Shown piece after piece: positions 27,593 to 39,174 of a stretch of 64,000 nucleotides of DNA (its first letter is position 1; each line of letters starts with the position of its first letter). The DNA is from Candidatus Hodarchaeota archaeon (lineage in GTDB: Archaea; Asgardarchaeota; Lokiarchaeia; Sigyniarchaeales; SOKP01), in contig JBHLJY010000003.1 of assembly GCA_048887225.1 (NCBI GenBank), positions 46,420-110,419 of the forward strand. Direction: 5' to 3'. The notes under the pieces were generated by a model. The model was not told the DNA's origin, did no database searches, and saw only the letters and a list, made by a program, of their open reading frames with translations. Position numbers and translations under genes: made by a program.

Positions 27593-28534
27593 ATGATAGA
27601 ACATGACAAAGTTAATGAACATATACCTCCTACTCATTGCGTCTGGGCAAAAAATGTCCTTGAACAAGCATTAAGAGGGCTTAATTCAGATATAAAAGGA
27701 GTAGTAACGAGCCATGGTTGCGATTGTACCAACCGGGAGTTTGATATTTGGAGGGAGACTGTTGATATAGATTTCTTGTTTTATTTGAATGTTCCTTTAA
27801 AGAGAGATAAGACCGCATTAAAGTTTTTTATAACAGATCTTAAAGAATTGGTGGTCCAACTAGAAGAGCAATTTAAGGTCAAGATTGAGTCTGAAAAAAT
27901 TAAAAATGCCATTAAATTAACGAATCAGATTCGAAGATTGTTGAAAGAAATTTCCGAATATAGGAGCAAAATGATAATTAAAGGATCAGAATTTCATGAA
28001 TTAGTTAAACTCTGTCAGACCAGTGAGAAGTTGTATGCTTTAGAAATCTTGAAAAAAAAATTAAAACAATTAAAAAATAAAACACCCTTTATAGATAAAA
28101 AAATGAAACGGATTTTACTCACTGGTTCTGTTATTGATGACACAGAATTTTTAAAATTCTTAGAAGAAAAAGGATTTCAAGTAGTAGCAGACGATTTGTG
28201 TATTGGTTCAAGGTATTTTTGGAATAGTATTGATGAAGATAGGGATCCAATAGAAGCAATTGCTAAATATCATTTAAGTAAGCCATTATATTCTACCAAA
28301 ATGCCCTCATACGATCGCTTTATATTCTTAAAAGAATTAGCCGAAAAATACGAAGTGGATGGAGTTTTAAATATCGTGCAAAAGTTCTGCGAACCTATGC
28401 TTTATGATCATCCATATCTTAACAAAAAATTTAAGGAATTAAAAATCCCTTACACTTTTATCGAAATGTTATATAATAGAGAACAATTTAAACAACTTTC
28501 AACAAGGTTCGAAGCCTTTGCTGAAATAATTTAG
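27593..28534 (+). CDS. 2-hydroxyacyl-CoA dehydratase / benzoyl-CoA reductase family subunit (HgdB/BcrB-like); true N-terminus probably upstream (open frame from 27491)
   Basis: Family-typical length and strings. The frame upstream of the first ATG reads 'IIISKIGYFDADVVSPEEIFIAAGFTPIRLLGDP', which is the family's conserved N-terminal motif, but it contains no canonical start codon. Confidence 0.7.
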   Translation: MIEHDKVNEHIPPTHCVWAKNVLEQALRGLNSDIKGVVTSHGCDCTNREFDIWRETVDIDFLFYLNVPLKRDKTALKFFITDLKELVVQLEEQFKVKIESEKIKNAIKLTNQIRRLLKEISEYRSKMIIKGSEFHELVKLCQTSEKLYALEILKKKLKQLKNKTPFIDKKMKRILLTGSVIDDTEFLKFLEEKGFQVVADDLCIGSRYFWNSIDEDRDPIEAIAKYHLSKPLYSTKMPSYDRFIFLKELAEKYEVDGVLNIVQKFCEPMLYDHPYLNKKFKELKIPYTFIEMLYNREQFKQLSTRFEAFAEII

Positions 28535-28536
28535 AG

Positions 28537-29811
28537 GTGAGAGAGCTGTCAGAAAAGAAAAGTAAGATGTTAAAAGCTACTTTAGGATTAAAAAATGAAA
28601 TGGGTAGGCATTACTTAGCTATTGAGCAAGCTTATCGTGATGGTACTCCTACTGCCTGGGCAACTTCAGGCACTCCCGTTGAGCTTTTATATGCGATGGA
28701 TGTGCAACCAATGTTACCTGAAAATTCAGCCACAATATCAGCAGCACAAAAATATTCACAAGATTTTGTTGAAATTGCTGAGCAGGAAGGATTTTCTTAT
28801 GATATGTGTAGCTATTTTAAAACTAATATTGGCGCTATAATGAGAGATGTAGATGTGTTTAAAGGAGGGATAAGAAAGCCTACATTTATGTTATCGAGTG
28901 ATGTCATTTGTGATACCCATGTTCATTGGTTCCAAGTTCAAGCTGAAAGATTAGGAGGTGTTCCACACTATACCATCGATGTTCCTCATGTTGTAAGTAA
29001 TACAAATAGGCGACAATTAGGTTACTTTAAAAAATATGTCGAGGAACAAATATGGGAGCTTTTAGAATTTATAAAGAAACACACAGGTAATGATATCGAT
29101 ATGGAAAAGGCAAAAAAAGTCGCAGCTAATTCTTATGAGTTAAGCGAAGTATGGAGAGATATTTACGAGTTAAGAAAGACCATCCCTTGTCCCATTAGCA
29201 CTAAAGATACTTTTGGAGGTTTATTTCCATTATTTACTATGCCTGGCTTAAGATCACCTATTAAATTATATAAGAAAATGTATAAAGAAGCAAAGGCAAG
29301 GGTAGAAGTTGGACAAGGAGCTCTTGAAAAAGAGGAGTTTAGGCTTATGTTTGAAGGAATCCCTTTCTGGTATAATCTTAAGTATTTTGCTATGTTAGAA
29401 AAATTTAACGCGATTATAGTCTATGAGCCTTACACATTTGCCTTCTCGAAGTTTTTCTCCAATCCATTTGAGACTATTACTAAAGAACAACTTTTAAATG
29501 ATCCTATAAAATGTATGAGTTCATTGATGTTAAGCTTCTGGTATATTTTTGATCTCGAAACTAGAGTAAAATGGTTTAAAGATACAGTTAGTGCTTGGAA
29601 AATTGATGGCGTTTTAATGCATAATAATGTTTCTTGCAGACCAAATACATGTGCTTTCTATGATTTAAAACGACGCTTGACGGAAGAAGCAGATATTCCC
29701 TGTCTAATCATTGATGGAGATCAAAATGATCCTAGAAAGCTAAATAAAGTTCAAACTGCTAATCAGATTGAAAGTTTTATTGAAGTTCTTAGAGAAAGGA
29801 AGAAAAATTAA
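28537..29811 (+). CDS. 2-hydroxyacyl-CoA dehydratase family subunit (HgdA-like, D-component)
   Basis: 424 aa with a GTG start 2 nt after the preceding stop. 'WATSGTPVELLYAMDVQP', 'CSYFK' and 'CRPN' are typical of the HGD-D family. Confidence 0.8.
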   Translation: MRELSEKKSKMLKATLGLKNEMGRHYLAIEQAYRDGTPTAWATSGTPVELLYAMDVQPMLPENSATISAAQKYSQDFVEIAEQEGFSYDMCSYFKTNIGAIMRDVDVFKGGIRKPTFMLSSDVICDTHVHWFQVQAERLGGVPHYTIDVPHVVSNTNRRQLGYFKKYVEEQIWELLEFIKKHTGNDIDMEKAKKVAANSYELSEVWRDIYELRKTIPCPISTKDTFGGLFPLFTMPGLRSPIKLYKKMYKEAKARVEVGQGALEKEEFRLMFEGIPFWYNLKYFAMLEKFNAIIVYEPYTFAFSKFFSNPFETITKEQLLNDPIKCMSSLMLSFWYIFDLETRVKWFKDTVSAWKIDGVLMHNNVSCRPNTCAFYDLKRRLTEEADIPCLIIDGDQNDPRKLNKVQTANQIESFIEVLRERKKN

Positions 29812-29864
29812 TATTAAATTCGTTTTTTATCATTTGATATATTTATAGGAGGTATTAACTTAAA

Positions 29865-31169
29865 TTGAGTGAAAAAAGTAAGAAGTTGTATGAAGATTTA
29901 AAGACAAAAATTAATAGATTAAGAGAACAAGGAACTAAGGAAAAACAATTTGTGGATTTTTGGAGGTTAGCTTGTACTGCTAAATACAAATCTCATGATA
30001 TGAGGTATTTATATGATGATACAAGCCGAGAATTCATTGAAAAACACAGAAATCAATTAATAAAGATTAGAGAAGACTTCGTTGAAAATCTTGATTATTA
30101 TGTGGAAAAATGTATAGAACGGATGAGACAAACTAATAAATTCAGAGTTTATTACGCAAAAACTAACGAAGAAGCTCATAAAATGTTTATGGAAGAGCTA
30201 GGAGATGAAACCAAAATTTATAAATCTGTTTCTAACGAAGCAAAAGATATCGGACTAATTGAATTTTTAAACAAAAACGAGATTGAAATTAAAGAAACTG
30301 CAATAGGGGATATTCTTGCCCGTTTACTTGATTATAAATTACCAACATATCAATTAGGTTCCAGTGTTCATTTTAGCGTAGAGGAAATTGTTGCGAAAAT
30401 TAAAAAGGAATATAACGTTGATATCGAACCAAAAAGTGAAGCTATATTAAAATATTATAGAGACAATTATCGTCCAGAAATAGTTAATAATGTAAAGGTT
30501 TCGTTAACATCTGCTAATGCCATTGCTGCTGATGATGGGAGTATTTTTATTGGAGAAAACACTGGAAATATAAGTTTGATAACAAGATTGGCCGAAAAGC
30601 ATATCGTTGCAGTTGGAATCACTAAAATCGTTCCAACATCTTTTGATGCCTTTCTTGTAACAAAGACTCTATCTAGAATAAATAAAACATCTATGGCATA
30701 TCTTAGTATAATTTCAGCACCTTCAAATACGTCAAGCATTCAAGGTAAAACTACTCAAGGAGCCTTTGGTGCAAGAGATGTGGTTGTAATCTTTGTGGAC
30801 GAATGGCGTAGGAATGCAGTCGAAAAAAACCTTATATATAAGGATTTTTTAAAATGTATCAGTTGTAAAAGCTGTAGCTTCGTTTGCACTGCCTCTCGAG
30901 CCTTTGGTAACATTTTTGCAAGCAAATATGGATTGGGTGCTACAGCGATTATTAGAGAATATATCCACAATGGAATCGAAGCTGCTGTGAATTCTGGATT
31001 ATTTCTATGCACCGGCTGCGATAATTGTTATAAATGGTGCCCCGTTGGTGTAAATTTAAGAGAAATAATGACAAATATAAAGAAAGAAGCAATTGAAAAG
31101 GATTTATGTCCACCACCTTTAATGGACTATAGAAAAAATATTCTTGTAAACAAAAATCCATTTAAATAA
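29865..31169 (+). CDS. LUD-domain / 2x[4Fe-4S] protein (LutB-like)
   Basis: LUD-like 'SANAIAADDGSIFIGENTGNISLITRLAEKHIVAVGITKIVP'. Two ferredoxin-type motifs, 'CISCKSCSFVC' and 'CTGCDNCYKWCP'. A GGAGGT lies upstream of the TTG start. Confidence 0.7.
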   Translation: MSEKSKKLYEDLKTKINRLREQGTKEKQFVDFWRLACTAKYKSHDMRYLYDDTSREFIEKHRNQLIKIREDFVENLDYYVEKCIERMRQTNKFRVYYAKTNEEAHKMFMEELGDETKIYKSVSNEAKDIGLIEFLNKNEIEIKETAIGDILARLLDYKLPTYQLGSSVHFSVEEIVAKIKKEYNVDIEPKSEAILKYYRDNYRPEIVNNVKVSLTSANAIAADDGSIFIGENTGNISLITRLAEKHIVAVGITKIVPTSFDAFLVTKTLSRINKTSMAYLSIISAPSNTSSIQGKTTQGAFGARDVVVIFVDEWRRNAVEKNLIYKDFLKCISCKSCSFVCTASRAFGNIFASKYGLGATAIIREYIHNGIEAAVNSGLFLCTGCDNCYKWCPVGVNLREIMTNIKKEAIEKDLCPPPLMDYRKNILVNKNPFK

Positions 31170-32670: not shown

Positions 32671-33045
32671 TTAAAAAAATTGGTTCGCAATTTTAACATG
32701 TGGGCTGGGTGTTAAAATTAGGTATTGATCGCCTATTCGACCAATAGATCCACCGCGCATTTCTAAGAATGATTTAATTTCCTCTATACAATATTTTAAT
32801 TCTTGAATTGGAATTTTATTATTTTCGAGAAGTTCTTTTGCATTGATCACTAATATTTTTCTTCCCAAAAGTTGTTGTTTTATATCTTCTAGCTGCTCAA
32901 TTGACTGGAACTTATATTTTTTAATTAAGAATTTTTGAATCATATATGGAACTTGAAGATAGTTTCTCTCTTTCGCAAAACCAAGTGTCTCATGAGGAGA
33001 TCCATCTCCTAAAATGTCATCATATTCTTTTTTCCAAAATTTCAT
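32671..33045 (-). CDS. sepF: SepF-like cell-division protein
   Basis: 124 aa. 'SIEQLEDIKQQLLGRKILVINAKEL....IQELKYCIEEIKSFLEMRGGSIGRIGDQYLILTPSPHVKI' is collinear with recalled archaeal SepF (DUF552). Confidence 0.6.
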   Translation of the reverse strand: MKFWKKEYDDILGDGSPHETLGFAKERNYLQVPYMIQKFLIKKYKFQSIEQLEDIKQQLLGRKILVINAKELLENNKIPIQELKYCIEEIKSFLEMRGGSIGRIGDQYLILTPSPHVKIANQFF

Positions 33046-33437
33046 TTTTAACCTTCACACACCATAACCTTTATTTTAAATTTTATTATTACAAGGATAT
33101 TTTTAATTTAAAGATATTTAAAGGGATGAGTTATCGGGATGTATTCTTAAAAAGTATACATATATGATGTTGAAGATAATAAGAGTAATATTGAGATCTT
33201 ATTAAAAGATAATCAATTATAATTTTTTTTCTAAAATCTATGGTTACAGTTAATATCGCTAATATTTTAAAAAATATAACATCTAAATATTACAGATGAA
33301 GTTTTAATATTAATAAATAGAGCTTTAAATCAAATTAAAATGTATAAATAACCTTACGATAAATTTATCATTAACAATAAATTTTATTAAAAGTCCTAAA
33401 AAGTCAATTAAAATTAAAAATTACGAATAAAAAGAAA

Positions 33438-33899
33438 ATGACCGAAAAAGTAATTATAACAAATAAAGGGATGGTACGAGCAGAATTTAATTTCTGGGTC
33501 GGAAAATATATGGATAAATTCTACGATAACTTAGAAAATAAGAAGATAATAGGAAATAAATGTACGAAATGCGGAGTTGTTTTTGTACCGCCGAGAAAAA
33601 TCTGTGGTAATTGTAATTTAGTAATTTCACTCGACCAAAACTGGGTTGATTTACCTAATACTGGTACTTTAATGAATTATACAATTACACCCTATAAAGT
33701 CACCGAAAGAGGTTCAAGAAACGTAAAAAAGGGGCAGATAATAGGGCTGATAAATATTGACGGGAGCAATACAGGGATAGTTTATAAGTTATTGAATATG
33801 GAACCTGGAGAGGTTAAAACAGGGATGAAAGTCAAAATAGAATGGGCTGAAAAAACAAAAGGGGCCCCTTCAGATATAAAAGGGTTCGTAAAGGCGTGA
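33438..33899 (+). CDS. DUF35 OB-fold/zinc-ribbon acyl-CoA-associated protein
   Basis: Zn ribbon 'CTKCGVVFVPPRKICGNC' followed by an OB-like region. 153 aa. Confidence 0.8.
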   Translation: MTEKVIITNKGMVRAEFNFWVGKYMDKFYDNLENKKIIGNKCTKCGVVFVPPRKICGNCNLVISLDQNWVDLPNTGTLMNYTITPYKVTERGSRNVKKGQIIGLINIDGSNTGIVYKLLNMEPGEVKTGMKVKIEWAEKTKGAPSDIKGFVKA

Positions 33900-33904
33900 G
33901 GTGG
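33898..33904 (+). promoter_or_regulatory. Shine-Dalgarno-like GAGGTGG upstream of 33914 (operon-internal)
   Basis: A purine-rich GGTG-type motif 9 nt before the ATG, overlapping the preceding stop codon. Confidence 0.5.
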
Positions 33905-33913
33905 TAAAGTCAA

Positions 33914-35056
33914 ATGGAAAAAGTAGGAATTGTAGGTTATAATCAAGTCAAATTATCATCAGACGCGAATTATGGTCGTTATGAAATGATCTTTGAGGCT
34001 GTTAGAGGAGCAATTGACAAAGCAGGCTTAAAAAAGAAGGATATAACTACAGTTATCTCTTGTACAAATGATTATTACGATGGGCGGACGATTTCAAATT
34101 GTTTTACAGTTGAAGTTGGAGGGGGCTACATGGCAGATGAGAGTAAAGTGGAGATGGATGGTGCACATGGTGTTTTATATGGATTAATGCGTATATTATC
34201 TGGTAATCATAAACTAGCTGTGGTGTGGGGTGGAAGCATGGCTTCTTGCTTTCCATATCACACGACAAAATTATATGAAACAGATCCAACATGGGAACGA
34301 CCAACACAATTAGTAAATGATATAACAGCCAGCGGATTTCAAATGAGGGCTTACATGGAAAAATTTGGTGTAAGTGCTGAAAATATAGCAAAGGTGGCTG
34401 TTAAAAATAGGAAAAACGCAGCTAAAAATATTTTAGCATTACCAGAAGCACAAAATCCTAATTTATCTGTTCAAGATGTATTAAATTCTGATAATTACGC
34501 AGATCCTGTCACTGAATTAATGGTTGCTCAGCCTTGTGATGGCGTCGCTGCACTATTGTTAGCTCCTGAACAGCAAGCCCGAAAAATCACGGATAAGCCC
34601 GTATGGATTACTGGCGTAGGATGGTCTCAAGATACTTATTATTTAGGCGATCGAGATTTATCTACAATTAAATCAATGGAAATTGCGGGCAAAAAAGCAT
34701 TTGAAATGGCGGGGCTTAATAATCCTCGAAGTCAAATAGATGTAGCTGAATTATTTGAAGCATATGCGCATGAAGAATTAATTATGGCCGAAGCTTTAGG
34801 TTTGGCCGAGAAAGGCAAAGGATCAAGTTTAAACTCTGAAATTGGCGGTGAATTTCCAATCAATCCTTCAGGTGGTGCAATTGGTGGTAATCCTCTTTGT
34901 GCTACAGGAATAATCAGGATCATAGAAGCAGTTAAACAACTCAGGGGGGAAGCTAATGGTTATCAAGTAAGTGGTGTTAAAAGGGCAATAGCTTCGGGAC
35001 AAATCGGTATGTGTGCTCAAAATAATATATTATATGTATTGGAGGGAGATAATTAA
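33914..35056 (+). CDS. thiolase-fold (SCP-x/archaeal thiolase-like) protein lacking the nucleophilic Cys
   Basis: 380 aa with thiolase-like N- and C-terminal halves ('NPSGGAIGGNPLCATG'). The position of the CxSG nucleophile reads 'KVEMDGAHGV'. Confidence 0.75.
   Translation: MEKVGIVGYNQVKLSSDANYGRYEMIFEAVRGAIDKAGLKKKDITTVISCTNDYYDGRTISNCFTVEVGGGYMADESKVEMDGAHGVLYGLMRILSGNHKLAVVWGGSMASCFPYHTTKLYETDPTWERPTQLVNDITASGFQMRAYMEKFGVSAENIAKVAVKNRKNAAKNILALPEAQNPNLSVQDVLNSDNYADPVTELMVAQPCDGVAALLLAPEQQARKITDKPVWITGVGWSQDTYYLGDRDLSTIKSMEIAGKKAFEMAGLNNPRSQIDVAELFEAYAHEELIMAEALGLAEKGKGSSLNSEIGGEFPINPSGGAIGGNPLCATGIIRIIEAVKQLRGEANGYQVSGVKRAIASGQIGMCAQNNILYVLEGDN
35041..35047 (+). promoter_or_regulatory. 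Shine-Dalgarno-like GGAGGGA upstream of 35059
   Basis: Located 11 nt before the ATG, inside the 3' end of the preceding gene. Confidence 0.5.
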
Positions 35057-35058
35057 TA

Positions 35059-36306
35059 ATGGGAAGACAAGTATGTTGTATAAGTGCAGGTTTTTCAGAA
35101 CATGCTTCTAAACGCTCTGATGTAAGTATGCCTGAATTAATCAATGAAGCTATTCAGGATTGCATGAAGAAAATTCCAAGCATTGGTTTGGATGATATAG
35201 ATGCTTTTGTTAATGGAAATATGCCCGCTTTTGAGGGTTCTAATATTCCTGAATTATGGATGACTGATTGGTTGGGAGCGAGAAATAAACCATTAATGCG
35301 AGTAACAACTGGAGGTACAACTGGGGGGACAGTCGCTATTTGTGGATATTATAATGTTGCCGCAGGAATACCTGGTGTTGATACTGTGTTAGCTATCGCA
35401 TTTGAACAGCAAAGTCAAGGTGATACAAGCTTAGGTCTTGCAAGTGTTGCACTAGGTGAAATATCAATACTTAACACTTTAGGGATAACTTATGAACAGC
35501 TTACACGTTTATTATCTGCTGGTGCAGCTATAGGAGTTGCTGCTTATCAAGCTACTACCTATATGAATAAAACAAGGATAACTGAGGAAGATTTAGCAAG
35601 AGTTGTCGTTCAAAATAGGAGAAATGCTGCAAAAACGTGGTGGGCTCACTTAAGAATGCCAAATCTTACAATTGAAGATGTTTTAGATACTCCATATATT
35701 CAATATCCGTTGCGTTATGGGATGGTTTGTCCTTCGTCCGATGGAGCTTGCGCAATGTTATTTACAACGGAAGAAAAAGCTAAAGAATGGGCTGACATCC
35801 CTGTTTATGTAAATGGTGTGGCTAGTGTTGCTAATGAAACAGCTATACTTGGATATGATGGAGCAGGTTCAGCGCAAATTGATCCTTCAACTCAATTAGG
35901 TGCCATGAAATCAGCAGAATTGGCTTATAATCAAGCTGGAATCTCATTTCCGAGAAAGGAAATTGATTACGCTGAAGTTTATGCCCCTTTCCCAAATCAG
36001 GAACTCATGTGGGTAGAAAAATTAGGTTTATTCGAAGAAACTACGGCTCCACAAATGTATGAAACAGGTGTGACAGCTCTAAATGGTGAACTTCCAGTAT
36101 GTTGTACAGGGGGTGTTGTTTCTACAAACGCAATCGGCGCTAGTGCTATGGAGCGACCCGCTGATGCAGCTTTGCAAATAATGGGAAAATCAGCCAACCA
36201 AGTTCCAAAGACGGTACATACATCCATTGGACATGGATGGGGTGGATCGCTTAATTTATGTACACTTATGGTATTTTCGGATGAACCAAAAAGAAAATGG
36301 AGGTAA
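35059..36306 (+). CDS. second thiolase-fold protein lacking the nucleophilic Cys
   Basis: 415 aa, thiolase-like. The nucleophile region reads 'RVTTGGTTGGTVAI', and the C-terminal 'GHPxGATG' position reads 'STNAIGASA'. Confidence 0.75.
   Translation: MGRQVCCISAGFSEHASKRSDVSMPELINEAIQDCMKKIPSIGLDDIDAFVNGNMPAFEGSNIPELWMTDWLGARNKPLMRVTTGGTTGGTVAICGYYNVAAGIPGVDTVLAIAFEQQSQGDTSLGLASVALGEISILNTLGITYEQLTRLLSAGAAIGVAAYQATTYMNKTRITEEDLARVVVQNRRNAAKTWWAHLRMPNLTIEDVLDTPYIQYPLRYGMVCPSSDGACAMLFTTEEKAKEWADIPVYVNGVASVANETAILGYDGAGSAQIDPSTQLGAMKSAELAYNQAGISFPRKEIDYAEVYAPFPNQELMWVEKLGLFEETTAPQMYETGVTALNGELPVCCTGGVVSTNAIGASAMERPADAALQIMGKSANQVPKTVHTSIGHGWGGSLNLCTLMVFSDEPKRKWR
36299..36304 (+). promoter_or_regulatory. 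Shine-Dalgarno-like GGAGGT upstream of 36313
   Basis: Located 8 nt before the ATG and overlapping the preceding stop region. Confidence 0.5.
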
Positions 36307-36312
36307 AATGTA

Positions 36313-36846
36313 ATGTCAGAAAAGAAATTATCTAAAAGAACAGAAAGAAAAGCTTTAGATTATATTAAGAAGGATTATGTAAGAACAAGAGCAATGCCTG
36401 GCGCATGGTATTTATCAAGTTACAAATTTAAATTCAATATAACTCATATGCAACCTTTCTTAAAGAAATTGAAAGATAAGAAACTTGTTGGAAATCGATG
36501 TTCTGGATGCAATAGAATATTTTTCCCTCCAAGACAAGTGTGCGGAGAATGTCTATTAAAACCAGATAGATGGGTTGATATCAGAGAAACTGCCAATGTT
36601 TCTACTTACGCTATTGCATATCTTAAGAATGCTGAAACAGGTGAGACTGAGGAAAAACCAATGGTCCTGATTCAGCATGATGGCTCAGACACTTGCTCAG
36701 TAGCTGAATTAGCTCTCAATATTGATGTCAAGGATACTTATATAAATATGCCAATAAAGGTTCATTGGCGCGATGAAAGAACAGGTGGATTAATGGATAT
36801 CGAGTATTACGATAAGATAGAAGATGATTCGAAGGATATAGACTAA
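36313..36846 (+). CDS. DUF35 OB-fold/zinc-ribbon protein (second copy)
   Basis: 'CSGCNRIFFPPRQVCGEC' plus an OB-like C-terminal region. 177 aa. Confidence 0.8.
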   Translation: MSEKKLSKRTERKALDYIKKDYVRTRAMPGAWYLSSYKFKFNITHMQPFLKKLKDKKLVGNRCSGCNRIFFPPRQVCGECLLKPDRWVDIRETANVSTYAIAYLKNAETGETEEKPMVLIQHDGSDTCSVAELALNIDVKDTYINMPIKVHWRDERTGGLMDIEYYDKIEDDSKDID

Positions 36847-36895
36847 CATTAATAAAACTAAATTTATTCTTTTTTAATTATCTTTTTTTAAATAA

Positions 36896-37540
36896 TTATC
36901 GCCAAAAGTGGATTATTGGAGAAAAAGTTTCACCTAACCAATAAAAAAAAGATATCCAATAAATACAAGTTAAACCTAGATATAAAAGTCCAAAAAGGGC
37001 TCCAAATAGAAATCCAAATAATACATCAGTTGGGAAGTGAGCACCCAATATCAATCGAGTTATTGCCACAATTACATCAAGTATAATAAAAATTAATAAA
37101 ATTATCCAATTCTGGAAGAAAAAAGCAAATATTATCCCAAAAAACAATAAAAAAGTAACATGTCCAGAAGGAAATGATTTATCTTCTCTAATTAATTCAT
37201 CGTGCTGTTTGACTCCTTCTTCTTCTAATTTTACATAAGGTCGGTTTCTTTTTACAATTTTATAACGAATAATAATGTGAAGTATTATGCTTTGAATAAA
37301 TCCGCCAGTAAATAAAACAAAAAGATAATAATCTTTAGTAATATAACCATAAATAGCCCAAATAAGCCAAATTAAACCCCAAAATTGCATATTGGCGATG
37401 AATGAGAAAATTTTAGCAAACAATATAATTCTTTTTCCTTTAAGAAATTTATTTTTATAAAGTTTAAGAAATGTTTTTTTATCCCACTCATTAATTCTTT
37501 GAATTATCCCTCTTGAAGAAGTCTTTTCTGATAATATCAT
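36896..37540 (-). CDS. PAP2-family membrane phosphatase
   Basis: 'KSFPSGHV' and 'TRLILGAHFPTDVLFG' acid-phosphatase motifs. Multi-TM. Confidence 0.8.
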   Translation of the reverse strand: MILSEKTSSRGIIQRINEWDKKTFLKLYKNKFLKGKRIILFAKIFSFIANMQFWGLIWLIWAIYGYITKDYYLFVLFTGGFIQSIILHIIIRYKIVKRNRPYVKLEEEGVKQHDELIREDKSFPSGHVTFLLFFGIIFAFFFQNWIILLIFIILDVIVAITRLILGAHFPTDVLFGFLFGALFGLLYLGLTCIYWISFFYWLGETFSPIIHFWR

Positions 37541-37791
37541 TATATTATTTATATAAAATAATATTAGCCTTAAATTTTGAATATGTATAAAGGCAGATAT
37601 TTATATTTTTTCCTAACTATAATCGTTTTACTAACTTTAATCATTTGAATATTTGTTTAATTTAATTACTATTTTGTAAAGCTGAATAATTGAATACAAT
37701 TAAGTCAGTCTTCTTAAAGAAAATTATTATTTTTAATCTAATATTTAAAATTCTAGATAAAATTTTTCAAATTATAAAGAATTTATAAGAA

Positions 37792-39174
37792 GTGTGTTTT
37801 ATGGTAGAAAGCGTAAGTATATATGAAAAATATTTTAAAGATCCGAAGCGTGAACCTGTCTTAATTGATTATGTCAGGACGCCTATCGGAAAGAGAAGAG
37901 GGACAGTAGTCCGACATCGTGGCGATGATTTGGTAATACATTGCTATGAAACGCTTTTAAATCGGAATGATTTTGATAAAAGTGTTCTTGGTGATTCGAT
38001 TGTTTCATGTAATAGTCAGATAGGTGAATGTGCACTAGACATTGGTAGAAACGCCGCTATGGGAGCACATTTACCTGTTTCTGTCCCAGGTTTCAGTGTA
38101 AATAGGCATTGTGCGAGTGGCGCTCAAGCTGTTTTATCTGGCTGGCAAGCTATTGCATGCGGTGCAATGGATGCTGTAATTTGTGGCGGTATAGAACTTC
38201 AAAATAAATATCCTATTATGGCGGACGCGTATGTATTTAATGAAGAATTAGGAAAACCTCTAATGGTTGCCCCAAATAAAAAGATTTTAACAAATCCTGA
38301 AGTTGCTGCTAAGTTAAAAGAATTTAATACAACATTATCAGGGCAAATTAATTCAGCTCACGTTTTAGGTATTCATTATTACAGTAAACATAAAGGGATC
38401 TCAATGAATGAATTTAAAGGTGAGTATCGAGATGAGTTTAAACAAGAATTGGATCAAATATCATTACTTTCTCATCAAAAAGCATGTAGCACATACGATG
38501 ATAGAGCTAAAGAAATTGAACCAATATGGTGCCCTAAACTTGACGAAAACGGAAAACCTATGCTTGACGAAAATAATAATGTTGCTCAAGATGAAAGTCT
38601 TTCTGTATTAACGACTCAAGATGAAGGACCTCGCCCAACTACAAGTATAGAAGCATTATCAAAACTAAAAACAATAATAGGGCGTAAAAGTCAAGCATTT
38701 TTAACGGCTGGAAACAGTTGTCCTACAAGCGATGGTGCTGCCGCACAAATCTGGATGACGAGAGGATTAGCTGAAGATTTAGGTCTTAACCCTAGAGCCA
38801 CCATTTTAAATTTTGCTATTGTCGGTACTGACCCTGTATTAATGCTAGATGGTCCAGTTAGAGCTATGCCTGAAGCATTAAAGCGCGCTAACTTATCATT
38901 TGATGATATGGCTTTTATTGAAATTAACGAAGCTTTTAGTTCTGTTGTGTGGTCTTGTTGTAAAGAATTAGGGATAGATTGGAACGATCCAAGATTTAAT
39001 CCATGGGGCGGAGCAATCGCACTAGGGCACCCAACAGGAATGACGGGATGCCGACTAATAGGTACAAATTTACACCAATTAGAGAAGGCTGGAAAAGAAT
39101 ACGCAATTAGTTCTATGTGCGTTGGATTTGGGATGTCTATAGCAACAATTGTAAAAAACGAAAATCCTAAATAA
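37792..39174 (+). CDS. acetyl-CoA C-acyltransferase (bona fide thiolase; start GTG 37792 or ATG 37801)
   Basis: 'VNRHCASGAQAV' (nucleophilic Cys), 'NEAFSS', 'GGAIALGHPTGMTGCR' and 'SMCVGFGMS'. There is a ~60-aa insertion relative to typical ~395-aa thiolases. Confidence 0.85.
   Translation: MCFMVESVSIYEKYFKDPKREPVLIDYVRTPIGKRRGTVVRHRGDDLVIHCYETLLNRNDFDKSVLGDSIVSCNSQIGECALDIGRNAAMGAHLPVSVPGFSVNRHCASGAQAVLSGWQAIACGAMDAVICGGIELQNKYPIMADAYVFNEELGKPLMVAPNKKILTNPEVAAKLKEFNTTLSGQINSAHVLGIHYYSKHKGISMNEFKGEYRDEFKQELDQISLLSHQKACSTYDDRAKEIEPIWCPKLDENGKPMLDENNNVAQDESLSVLTTQDEGPRPTTSIEALSKLKTIIGRKSQAFLTAGNSCPTSDGAAAQIWMTRGLAEDLGLNPRATILNFAIVGTDPVLMLDGPVRAMPEALKRANLSFDDMAFIEINEAFSSVVWSCCKELGIDWNDPRFNPWGGAIALGHPTGMTGCRLIGTNLHQLEKAGKEYAISSMCVGFGMSIATIVKNENPK

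Follow-up and report, generated by a model that had tools for sequence, protein, structure and literature searches.

The operon described here lies in a window of 64,000 nucleotides from Candidatus Hodarchaeota archaeon (assembly GCA_048887225.1, contig JBHLJY010000003.1, positions 46,420 to 110,419 of the forward strand), and its four genes encode two proteins with an SCP-x-type thiolase fold, named A (380 aa) and B (415 aa), flanked by two DUF35 proteins, named DUF35a (first gene) and DUF35b (last gene). As judged from the aligned sequences, neither A nor B can form an acyl-Cys intermediate, and a complex built from them cannot carry out thiolysis or Claisen condensation via an acyl-enzyme. 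By analogy with characterised aldolases of the same fold, we see about an even chance that the operon product is a heteromeric, non-thiolytic aldolase-type C-C lyase in which B is catalytic. Both proteins have lost the thiolase residues, B has substitutions like those of the aldolases Sal and Ltp2, both proteins are strictly conserved, they occur together with two DUF35 units, and the set is akin to the Ltp4/Ltp3 system of actinobacteria. The operon is a distinct new member of a known family and not a new kind of machine.

The catalytic positions were mapped by HMMER alignment of A and B to solved SCP-x and archaeal thiolases (7YVY, 4YZO, 7PXP and 6ESQ). The first-pass annotation of this DNA had stated that both proteins lack the nucleophilic Cys of thiolases, quoting the strings VEMDGAHGV and TTGGTTGG at the nucleophile site and GNPLCATG and TNAIGASA at the C-terminal His site, with NRHCASG of the genuine thiolase at 37792-39174 for comparison. 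All of these strings are present, the alignments place the four strings of A and B at the catalytic positions, and the nucleophilic Cys is indeed absent from both proteins, in which no Cys/His/Cys or Glu/Cys/His triad was found. In A, the nucleophile is lost in a three-residue deletion (VEM---DGAHG) within the loop ESKVEMDGA. In B, its position, which marks the start of helix N-alpha-3 in thiolases, is occupied by Gly86 (RVTTGGTTGG). In place of the HDCF His stand Phe281 in A (F-E-A-Y) and Tyr308 in B (Y-A-P-F), and in place of the GHP His stand Asn326 in A (G-N-P) and Asn357 in B (T-N-A). The sole invariant Cys of B, Cys224 (C-P-x-S-D-G), is found in canonical thiolases too, at a non-catalytic place.

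Conservation was followed in 80 loci from species-representative genomes, all of them Promethearchaeota by title, a few with the labels Hod-, Hermod-, Odin- or Thorarchaeota. The order DUF35a-A-B-DUF35b is kept wherever a locus is complete enough to show it, so the arrangement is not due to chance. Across 70 orthologues, the B loops R-V-T-T-G-G-T-T-G-G, Y-A-E-V-Y-[SA]-P-F-P and S-G-G-V-N-S-T-N-A-I-G-A-S-A are invariant or almost so, with Gly86, Tyr308 and Asn357 fully invariant, and these three residues together with His197 are also invariant among B-type proteins at 34-70% identity. The A loop E-S-K-V-E-M-D-G-A, including the acidic Glu80 and Asp82, is likewise invariant in 70 orthologues, while 60 of them retain Phe281 and 64 retain Asn326. 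Conservation in both A and B is highest in the loops of the former active site. The zinc Cys of DUF35a (42, 45, 56 and 59; 69 orthologues) and those of the DUF35b zinc ribbon (63, 66, 77 and 80) are all invariant in the orthologue alignments, which makes eight zinc-ribbon Cys for the two proteins. Among the Lokiarchaeia orthologues, the median identity to the window proteins is 80% for A, 82% for B and 67-70% for the DUF35 proteins, and 55-71% for the neighbours SepF, PAP2 and the two subunits of HGD-D (2-hydroxyacyl-CoA dehydratase). Synonymous sites are saturated, with an identity at four-fold sites of 0.36-0.40 for A and B, 0.32-0.34 for most neighbours and 0.25 for SepF. Saturated synonymous sites combined with high protein identity indicate purifying selection and not recent transfer, and decaying pseudogenes are ruled out by the invariant loops and the 80-82% identity of A and B.

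The substitutions in B can be compared with two characterised systems of the SCP-x fold, Ltp2-ChsH2(DUF35) (6OK1) and Sal-Shy(DUF35) (9MYR). In both enzymes a Tyr (Sal Tyr302, Ltp2 Tyr294) is the catalytic base, Sal has Gly89 where thiolases have the nucleophilic Cys, and the catalytic acid is Cys304 in Sal and Tyr344 in Ltp2, the latter at a position equivalent to Sal Gln352 (PMC12329534). In the alignment of A with Sal, the HDCF His position corresponds to Sal Tyr302, the next-but-one residue to Sal Cys304 and the GHP His position to Sal Gln352, and Ltp2 Tyr344 therefore falls at the GHP His position. B has the aldolase-type Gly and Tyr, plus a Sal-like amide residue (Asn357) at the third site. 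A has no aldolase residue of Sal or Ltp2, its Phe281 being aligned with Sal Tyr302, and the Sal Cys304 position is Ala283 in A and Pro310 in B. Like B, Ltp2 and Sal have a non-His residue at the GHP His site, and each of their thiolase-fold subunits carries a DUF35 cap. Unlike the proteins of the operon, Ltp2 and Sal are homodimers that receive their DUF35 as a domain within the MaoC hydratase encoded before them, and they are remote in sequence (E 1e-11 to 1e-23). The CoA-binding Arg of Sal (Arg216) was also considered as a marker of CoA binding, and it is uninformative because true archaeal thiolases lack this Arg as well.

From these features we infer that the four gene products form one complex with aldolase chemistry, in which B, by analogy, is probably the catalytic, aldolase-type subunit and A probably a non-catalytic or auxiliary partner. 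The core would be a pseudo-symmetric A-B heterodimer of anciently diverged paralogues, each capped by its own DUF35, which would mirror the DUF35-enzyme-enzyme-DUF35 arrangement of the Ltp2-ChsH2 and Sal-Shy structures. By retro-aldol cleavage, a 3-hydroxyacyl-CoA would be converted to an aldehyde or ketone and acetyl- or propionyl-CoA, or the reaction would run in reverse. Tyr308 of B may serve as the general base on the 3-hydroxyl, with the Gly86 backbone and the Asn357 side chain holding the hydroxyl and the enolate, and A may be indispensable in another way, by taking part in binding or gating or by providing the general acid that is missing.

Several points weigh against this aldolase reading. 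First, B lacks the second catalytic residue of known aldolases, having Pro310 in place of Sal Cys304 and Asn357 in place of Ltp2 Tyr344. Second, DUF35a and DUF35b are stand-alone proteins without a MaoC domain by Pfam, and no hydratase is fused to them or conserved near the operon in the neighbourhoods examined, unlike the situation of Ltp2 and Sal. Third, A is closer to Sal by sequence than B (2e-23 vs 4e-4), and the A loop is as invariant as the B loops, so that catalysis by B is not secure. Fourth, the literature on the biochemistry of Ltp3 and Ltp4 yielded only genetic statements, in which they are genetically required "aldol lyases". Finally, the AlphaFold2 model of B, made from a 50-sequence alignment, is closest to true archaeal thiolases (7yvy, 6et9), with Ltp2 at rank 20 and Sal at rank 48. 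The model is a confident SCP-x thiolase fold (pLDDT 89, pTM 0.91), with low confidence around a clade-specific insertion (residues ~124-147, the low-confidence stretch reaching about 124-160) and at 263-266. Its best Foldseek matches are the true archaeal thiolases P. furiosus 7YVY and 6ET9/6ESQ, the latter from the thiolase/HMGCS/DUF35 complex (TM 0.80-0.84), and the Cys-less ST0096 (4YZO). The predicted fold of B confirms the family and does not discriminate the chemistry.

The closest known system to the operon is Ltp4/Ltp3 with a tandem DUF35 protein, from actinobacterial sterol catabolism (M. tuberculosis Rv3522/Rv3523/Rv3521; PRK07937 and PRK08313). Ltp3 and Ltp4 are described as retro-aldol lyases that set free propionyl-CoA (PMC10832528), which speaks for the aldolase reading of the operon. 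Both sets consist of adjacent Cys-less SCP-x-type paralogues, A then B, plus two DUF35 units. The Lokiarchaeia (Loki) and actinobacterial A proteins have in common the ES[KH]VEMD loop with the three-residue deletion (actinobacterial ESHVEMD[GA]A), and the B proteins T-x-G-[ST]-x-G-G, Y-x-P-F and [ST]-N-[AP]-I-G-A-S. In the S. clavuligerus and Tsukamurella plasmid loci, one fused tandem-DUF35 gene is followed by A and then by B, and the actinobacterial A and B proteins score far over the PRK07937 and PRK08313 cut-offs (550-734 bits). The Tsukamurella neighbours, an F420 oxidoreductase, a crotonase and an AMP-binding enzyme, form a sterol-type context, and their order mirrors M. tuberculosis fadD19, echA19, Rv3520c, Rv3521, ltp4 and ltp3. 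The operon differs from this system in several respects. Loki B is 34-38% and Loki A 29-30% identical to the actinobacterial proteins, and both score under the NCBIfam cut-offs (B 354.5 vs 514 bits for PRK08313, A 190.3 vs 419 for PRK07937), the best NCBIfam match of A being PRK06066. In Loki, one DUF35 gene stands on each side of the A-B pair in place of a single fused upstream gene, Loki B has an extra insertion, and the window neighbours include no sterol-catabolic genes (no FadD19, EchA19 or cyp, and no F420 oxidoreductase context). When DUF35a and DUF35b were compared with the halves of the fused actinobacterial DUF35 protein, no clear correspondence was seen.

Relationships were also viewed in a quickly made maximum-likelihood tree with SH-aLRT support, whose 43 rows include none labelled Ltp2 or Sal. 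In it, the Cys-less paired family stands apart from the canonical thiolases (support 100), and its members fall into A (93) and main B (86) clades, with B3 and one representative outside the main B clade. Loki and actinobacterial proteins share the A and B superclades of this tree. Within them, Loki B1/B2 is sister to the uncultured Actinomycetota representative P0126 (99) and not to the PRK08313 group, and A1/A2 lies beside Loki A4 and not beside actinobacterial A. Strict orthology with Ltp3/Ltp4 is thus supported neither by the scores nor by the tree, and on sequence grounds the operon belongs to the Ltp4/Ltp3/Rv3521 architectural family, probably as a separate subclade and not as an orthologue.

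Of the competing explanations, the one that survives best, unlikely as we consider it, is a thiolase-fold enzyme with another chemistry. It might decarboxylate a malonyl- or 3-oxoacid-type CoA ester, hydrate or isomerise its substrate, hydrolyse a thioester or transfer an acyl group with no covalent intermediate, and its key residues could sit in the acidic loop of A (Glu80, Asp82). This explanation is favoured by the absence of the Sal/Ltp2 catalytic acid from B and by the invariance of this A loop, which is also common to actinobacterial A. In addition, the Cys-less TbSLP binds malonyl-CoA and acetoacetyl-CoA, with a function that is not settled (PDB titles; PMC12329534), and the varied neighbours of the modules (acyl-CoA synthetase, acyl-CoA dehydrogenase, BKACE, NMO-like) fit general CoA-ester metabolism. 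However, the three substitutions in B are those of characterised aldolases, and no known decarboxylase or hydratase motif was identified. TbSLP (5AB4-7) and ST0096 (4YZO) resemble A and B in having a thiolase fold without the nucleophilic Cys, TbSLP with a YDCF motif. They differ in being homomeric, without the architecture of A, B and two DUF35 units, and ST0096 keeps both His.

Rather improbable is a non-catalytic complex, in which A and B would be a pseudo-enzyme scaffold, an acyl-CoA or lipid carrier, or a regulator docking enzymes via DUF35. Every canonical catalytic residue is gone from both proteins, DUF35 proteins serve as molecular staples in a number of complexes (PMC12329534; bioRxiv 10.1101/2024.07.05.601840), and PhlA provides a precedent as the inactive thiolase-fold partner in PhlABC (PMC2954200). 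Yet a scaffold would have no need of a Tyr, an Asn and a Gly that stay unchanged at catalytic positions in more than one domain of life, conservation peaks in the former active-site loops of both A and B, the constraint on the two proteins exceeds that on neighbouring enzymes, and there is no conserved catalytic partner beside the operon to be docked. PhlABC and MucABC (5M3K, 9VBO) are like the operon in combining two different thiolase-fold proteins with DUF35, one of the two being inert. They are unlike it in that PhlC keeps the catalytic Cys88, PhlA is of the KAS III and not of the SCP-x type, and only one DUF35 type is present. The first-pass annotation had proposed a Cys-less heteromeric enzyme, "aldolase-like or purely scaffolding". 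The first half of this proposal is the best-supported reading, with the Sal/Ltp2-like substitutions in B and the strict conservation in its favour, and the invariant active-site loops of both subunits make the second half less likely.

Fourteen SCP-x-type thiolase-fold genes were counted in the assembly (3.27 Mb, 98% complete), and eight of these 14 make up four modules of A, B and two DUF35 proteins. One module is the window operon and the other three are arranged head to tail on contig C6 (C6:65981-77483). Among these, one is a full paralogue with the order D-A-B-D (D denoting DUF35; B 70% and A 61% identical to the window proteins), and the other two are ordered A-B-D-D, one of them matching the NCBIfam equivalogs PRK06066 and PRK06065, to which no functional name is attached. 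All eight module proteins lack the nucleophile Cys and the GHP His. At the HDCF His site, all four B subunits have Tyr, and the A subunits vary (F, F, D and Y).

Genuine thiolase and HMG-CoA synthase (HMGCS) genes could be located elsewhere in the genome. A canonical Cys-bearing thiolase, above the cut-off of PRK06064, lies with its own DUF35 at C1:14450-16159, and a MaoC gene (C1:16389-16688) adjoins the pair. Thiolase, DUF35 and MaoC together form the fatty-acid synthase core in S. acidocaldarius (bioRxiv 10.1101/2024.07.05.601840). The genome also has three more Cys-bearing SCP-x types and several classical thiolases, including the one at 37792-39174. HMGCS is found at C3:195661-197298, on the same contig as the operon and about 150 kb away, as a long form of 545 aa that matches HMG_CoA_synt_N and HMG_CoA_synt_C. 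It is followed by a Glu/Leu-dehydrogenase-like gene and by HMG-CoA reductase (HMGR; block C3:195661-199908), with no thiolase/DUF35 pair adjacent to this block.

A true thiolase or condensing enzyme of fatty-acid synthesis or the mevalonate pathway with a displaced nucleophile has very little chance of being correct: ketothiolase (KT)/DUF35 pairs do drive archaeal condensation, with a mean of 3.8 pairs per Asgard genome (bioRxiv 10.1101/2024.07.05.601840), and the fold of B is nearest to archaeal thiolases, but Cys224, the only invariant Cys of B, is non-catalytic in canonical thiolases, both His are lost, and the genome has its own KT/DUF35 pair with adjacent MaoC, several classical thiolases and HMGCS. 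The archaeal DUF35-paired thiolases are like the operon in joining a DUF35 protein to an SCP-x-type thiolase-fold protein; unlike A and B, they keep the Cys and both His, perform Claisen condensation and are partnered by HMGCS or by a reductase/dehydratase. The mevalonate complex, with one subunit as HMGCS, was rejected; the operon has in common with it DUF35 genes beside thiolase-fold genes. The earlier statement that this is not the mevalonate-pathway complex holds, as A and B match no HMG-CoA synthase model and HMGCS, HMGR and KT/DUF35 are encoded elsewhere.

Returning to the aldolase-type complex, a more specific role can be imagined, to which we give a slim chance: the complex could be the C-C-cleaving step of a thiolase-independent acyl-CoA chain shortening, with the resulting aldehyde oxidised by one of the nine tungsten-type aldehyde oxidoreductases (AORs) of this genome. 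The substrate would be a 3-hydroxyacyl-CoA, which might be branched or derived from an isoprenoid and bear a non-oxidisable tertiary alcohol, and the products would be acetyl-CoA and an aldehyde or ketone. Oxidation of the aldehyde by a tungsten-type aldehyde:ferredoxin oxidoreductase would then give low-potential reduced ferredoxin instead of NADH. If true, such a ferredoxin-yielding route would suit an H2-producing syntroph and would be an unrecognised core catabolic route in Lokiarchaeia. Nine AOR-type enzymes, 14 crotonases and 5 MaoC proteins are available in the genome, and none is linked to the operon.

These results matter for metabolic models of Asgard archaea, in which counts of "acetyl-CoA acetyltransferase" annotations feed the reconstruction of butyrate, fatty-acid and lipid metabolism. 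In this genome, 8 of the 14 SCP-x-type "thiolases" cannot be thiolases. A preprint took the Asgard KT/DUF35 pairs (mean 3.8 per genome) as possible condensing enzymes (bioRxiv 10.1101/2024.07.05.601840), and, going by their catalytic positions, most such pairs in this genome are Cys-less A/B modules that are unable to condense by the thiolase mechanism. In its neighbourhood, the module ranks with the most strongly constrained gene sets, and it is shared with uncultured bacteria. Solving one member would settle the chemistry of Ltp3/Ltp4 in sterol-degrading actinobacteria and correct pathway reconstructions in Lokiarchaeia.

The distribution of the module was followed within and beyond the phylum. 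In a sample of 300 genomes from the phylum, a B copy with at least 76% identity is confined to the window's own family, where roughly 48 of 68 genomes have one, and a single other family has a 70-72% copy, in three genomes. Within the own family, B is matched weakly or not at all in several near-complete genomes, and one genus has none in four genomes. This patchy presence indicates that the operon is widespread and, where present, strongly constrained, and that it is not universal. In a representative search over 1.84 billion sequences, the whole Loki clade forms a single 50% cluster, and the next match, 43% identical, is a cluster from an uncultured Actinomycetota metagenome-assembled genome, with further matches to "thiolase domain-containing proteins" of Dehalococcoidia and Streptomyces. 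Using the 43% relative as query, a metagenome scan returned 51 loci, and open reading frames (ORFs) were called in 12 longer contigs with GC contents of 45-66%. All 12 of these high-GC bacterial contigs have the D-A-B-D cassette, which suggests an old exchange between domains, and among the few neighbours that were scanned are a two-component system, an NMO-like flavoprotein and an acyl-CoA synthetase. A, B and two DUF35 units were found together in every module examined, whether Loki, bacterial or actinobacterial.

The gene layout of the operon is given in Table 1. The four tightly spaced genes reported by the first-pass annotation are real, all ORFs being read on the + strand with gaps of 14, 2 and 6 nt. 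Its GGAGG-like motif at each gene stands in part: such motifs precede A, B and DUF35b (GAGGTGG, GGAGGG and GGAGGT), and no Shine-Dalgarno motif is found in the sequence upstream of DUF35a. The operon promoter presumably lies in the AT-rich spacer ahead of DUF35a. By Pfam, A and B match PF22691 with 97 and 77 bits and PF00108 barely over its cut-off.

Table 1. Features of the operon and its immediate flanks (window coordinates)
Feature	Coordinates	Strand	Description
SepF-like gene	32671-33045	-	divergent from the operon
Intergenic region, AT-rich, 392 nt	33046..33437	.	upstream of DUF35a, shared with the divergent SepF-like gene
DUF35a, 153 aa, zinc ribbon and OB fold	33438..33899	+	Pfam DUF35 (zf-ChsH2 with or without OB_ChsH2_C)
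A, 380 aa, SCP-x-type thiolase fold	33914..35056	+	Pfam Thiolase_C_1 and weak Thiolase_N
B, 415 aa, SCP-x-type thiolase fold	35059..36306	+	Pfam Thiolase_C_1 and weak Thiolase_N
DUF35b, 177 aa	36313..36846	+	Pfam DUF35; basic N-terminal extension, zinc ribbon, weak OB part, acidic tail
T-rich run after the last stop codon	36847..36895	+	resembles an archaeal terminator; the convergent PAP2 gene ends here

Genes near the operon in the window encode a proteasome subunit, SepF, PAP2, an MFS protein, an HGD pair and a thiolase. The proteasome subunit and SepF, together with the names that the homologues bear, mark the DNA as that of a Lokiarchaeial (Promethearchaeota) genome. Across the 80 Loki loci, no partner enzyme is conserved beside the operon. 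SepF and PAP2 often adjoin it on the opposite strand, and threonine-aldolase-like, acyl-CoA synthetase, acyl-CoA dehydrogenase and BKACE genes each occur near it in only 14-30 of the 80. The cross-genome neighbours point only to CoA-ester metabolism. The threonine-aldolase-like (Beta_elim_lyase) gene lies downstream of the module in 30 of the 80 loci, at the place where the window has PAP2, and in the only such locus inspected (L014, 8825-9880) it is convergent and directly adjacent. In the window, the HGD-D subunit pair is followed by a LUD/4Fe-4S protein (27593-31169). Only a dozen or so of the 80 loci show this pair in synteny with the operon, to which it therefore has no functional tie.

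On contig C6, the three modules have an acyl-CoA dehydrogenase upstream, a BKACE gene between two of them and an alpha/beta hydrolase downstream, and an AOR-type aldehyde oxidoreductase is encoded about 3.5 kb beyond them (C6:81066). A different Cys-less kind than the A/B pairs is a lone SCP-x-type protein at C1:92751-93983, which has Pro at the nucleophile position and keeps both the HD and the GHP His. Its gene adjoins that of a classical thiolase (C1:91419-92633).

The GC content of the window is low (about 30%), and the block 33438-39174 is richer in GC, with 0.38-0.40 for A and B vs about 0.30 around them. A foreign "GC island" or a recent horizontal spread was ruled out, as the GC content at third codon positions (0.22-0.23) equals that of the neighbours and the four-fold sites are saturated. 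The extra GC resides in codon positions 1 and 2 and is therefore an effect of amino-acid composition and not of foreign origin. One public record, DATKTW010000129.1, was submitted under the name 'Candidatus Nanopelagicaceae bacterium' and contains the Loki operon (85% identity) along with SepF, PAP2 and two further ORFs of the window; its label is probably a binning error.

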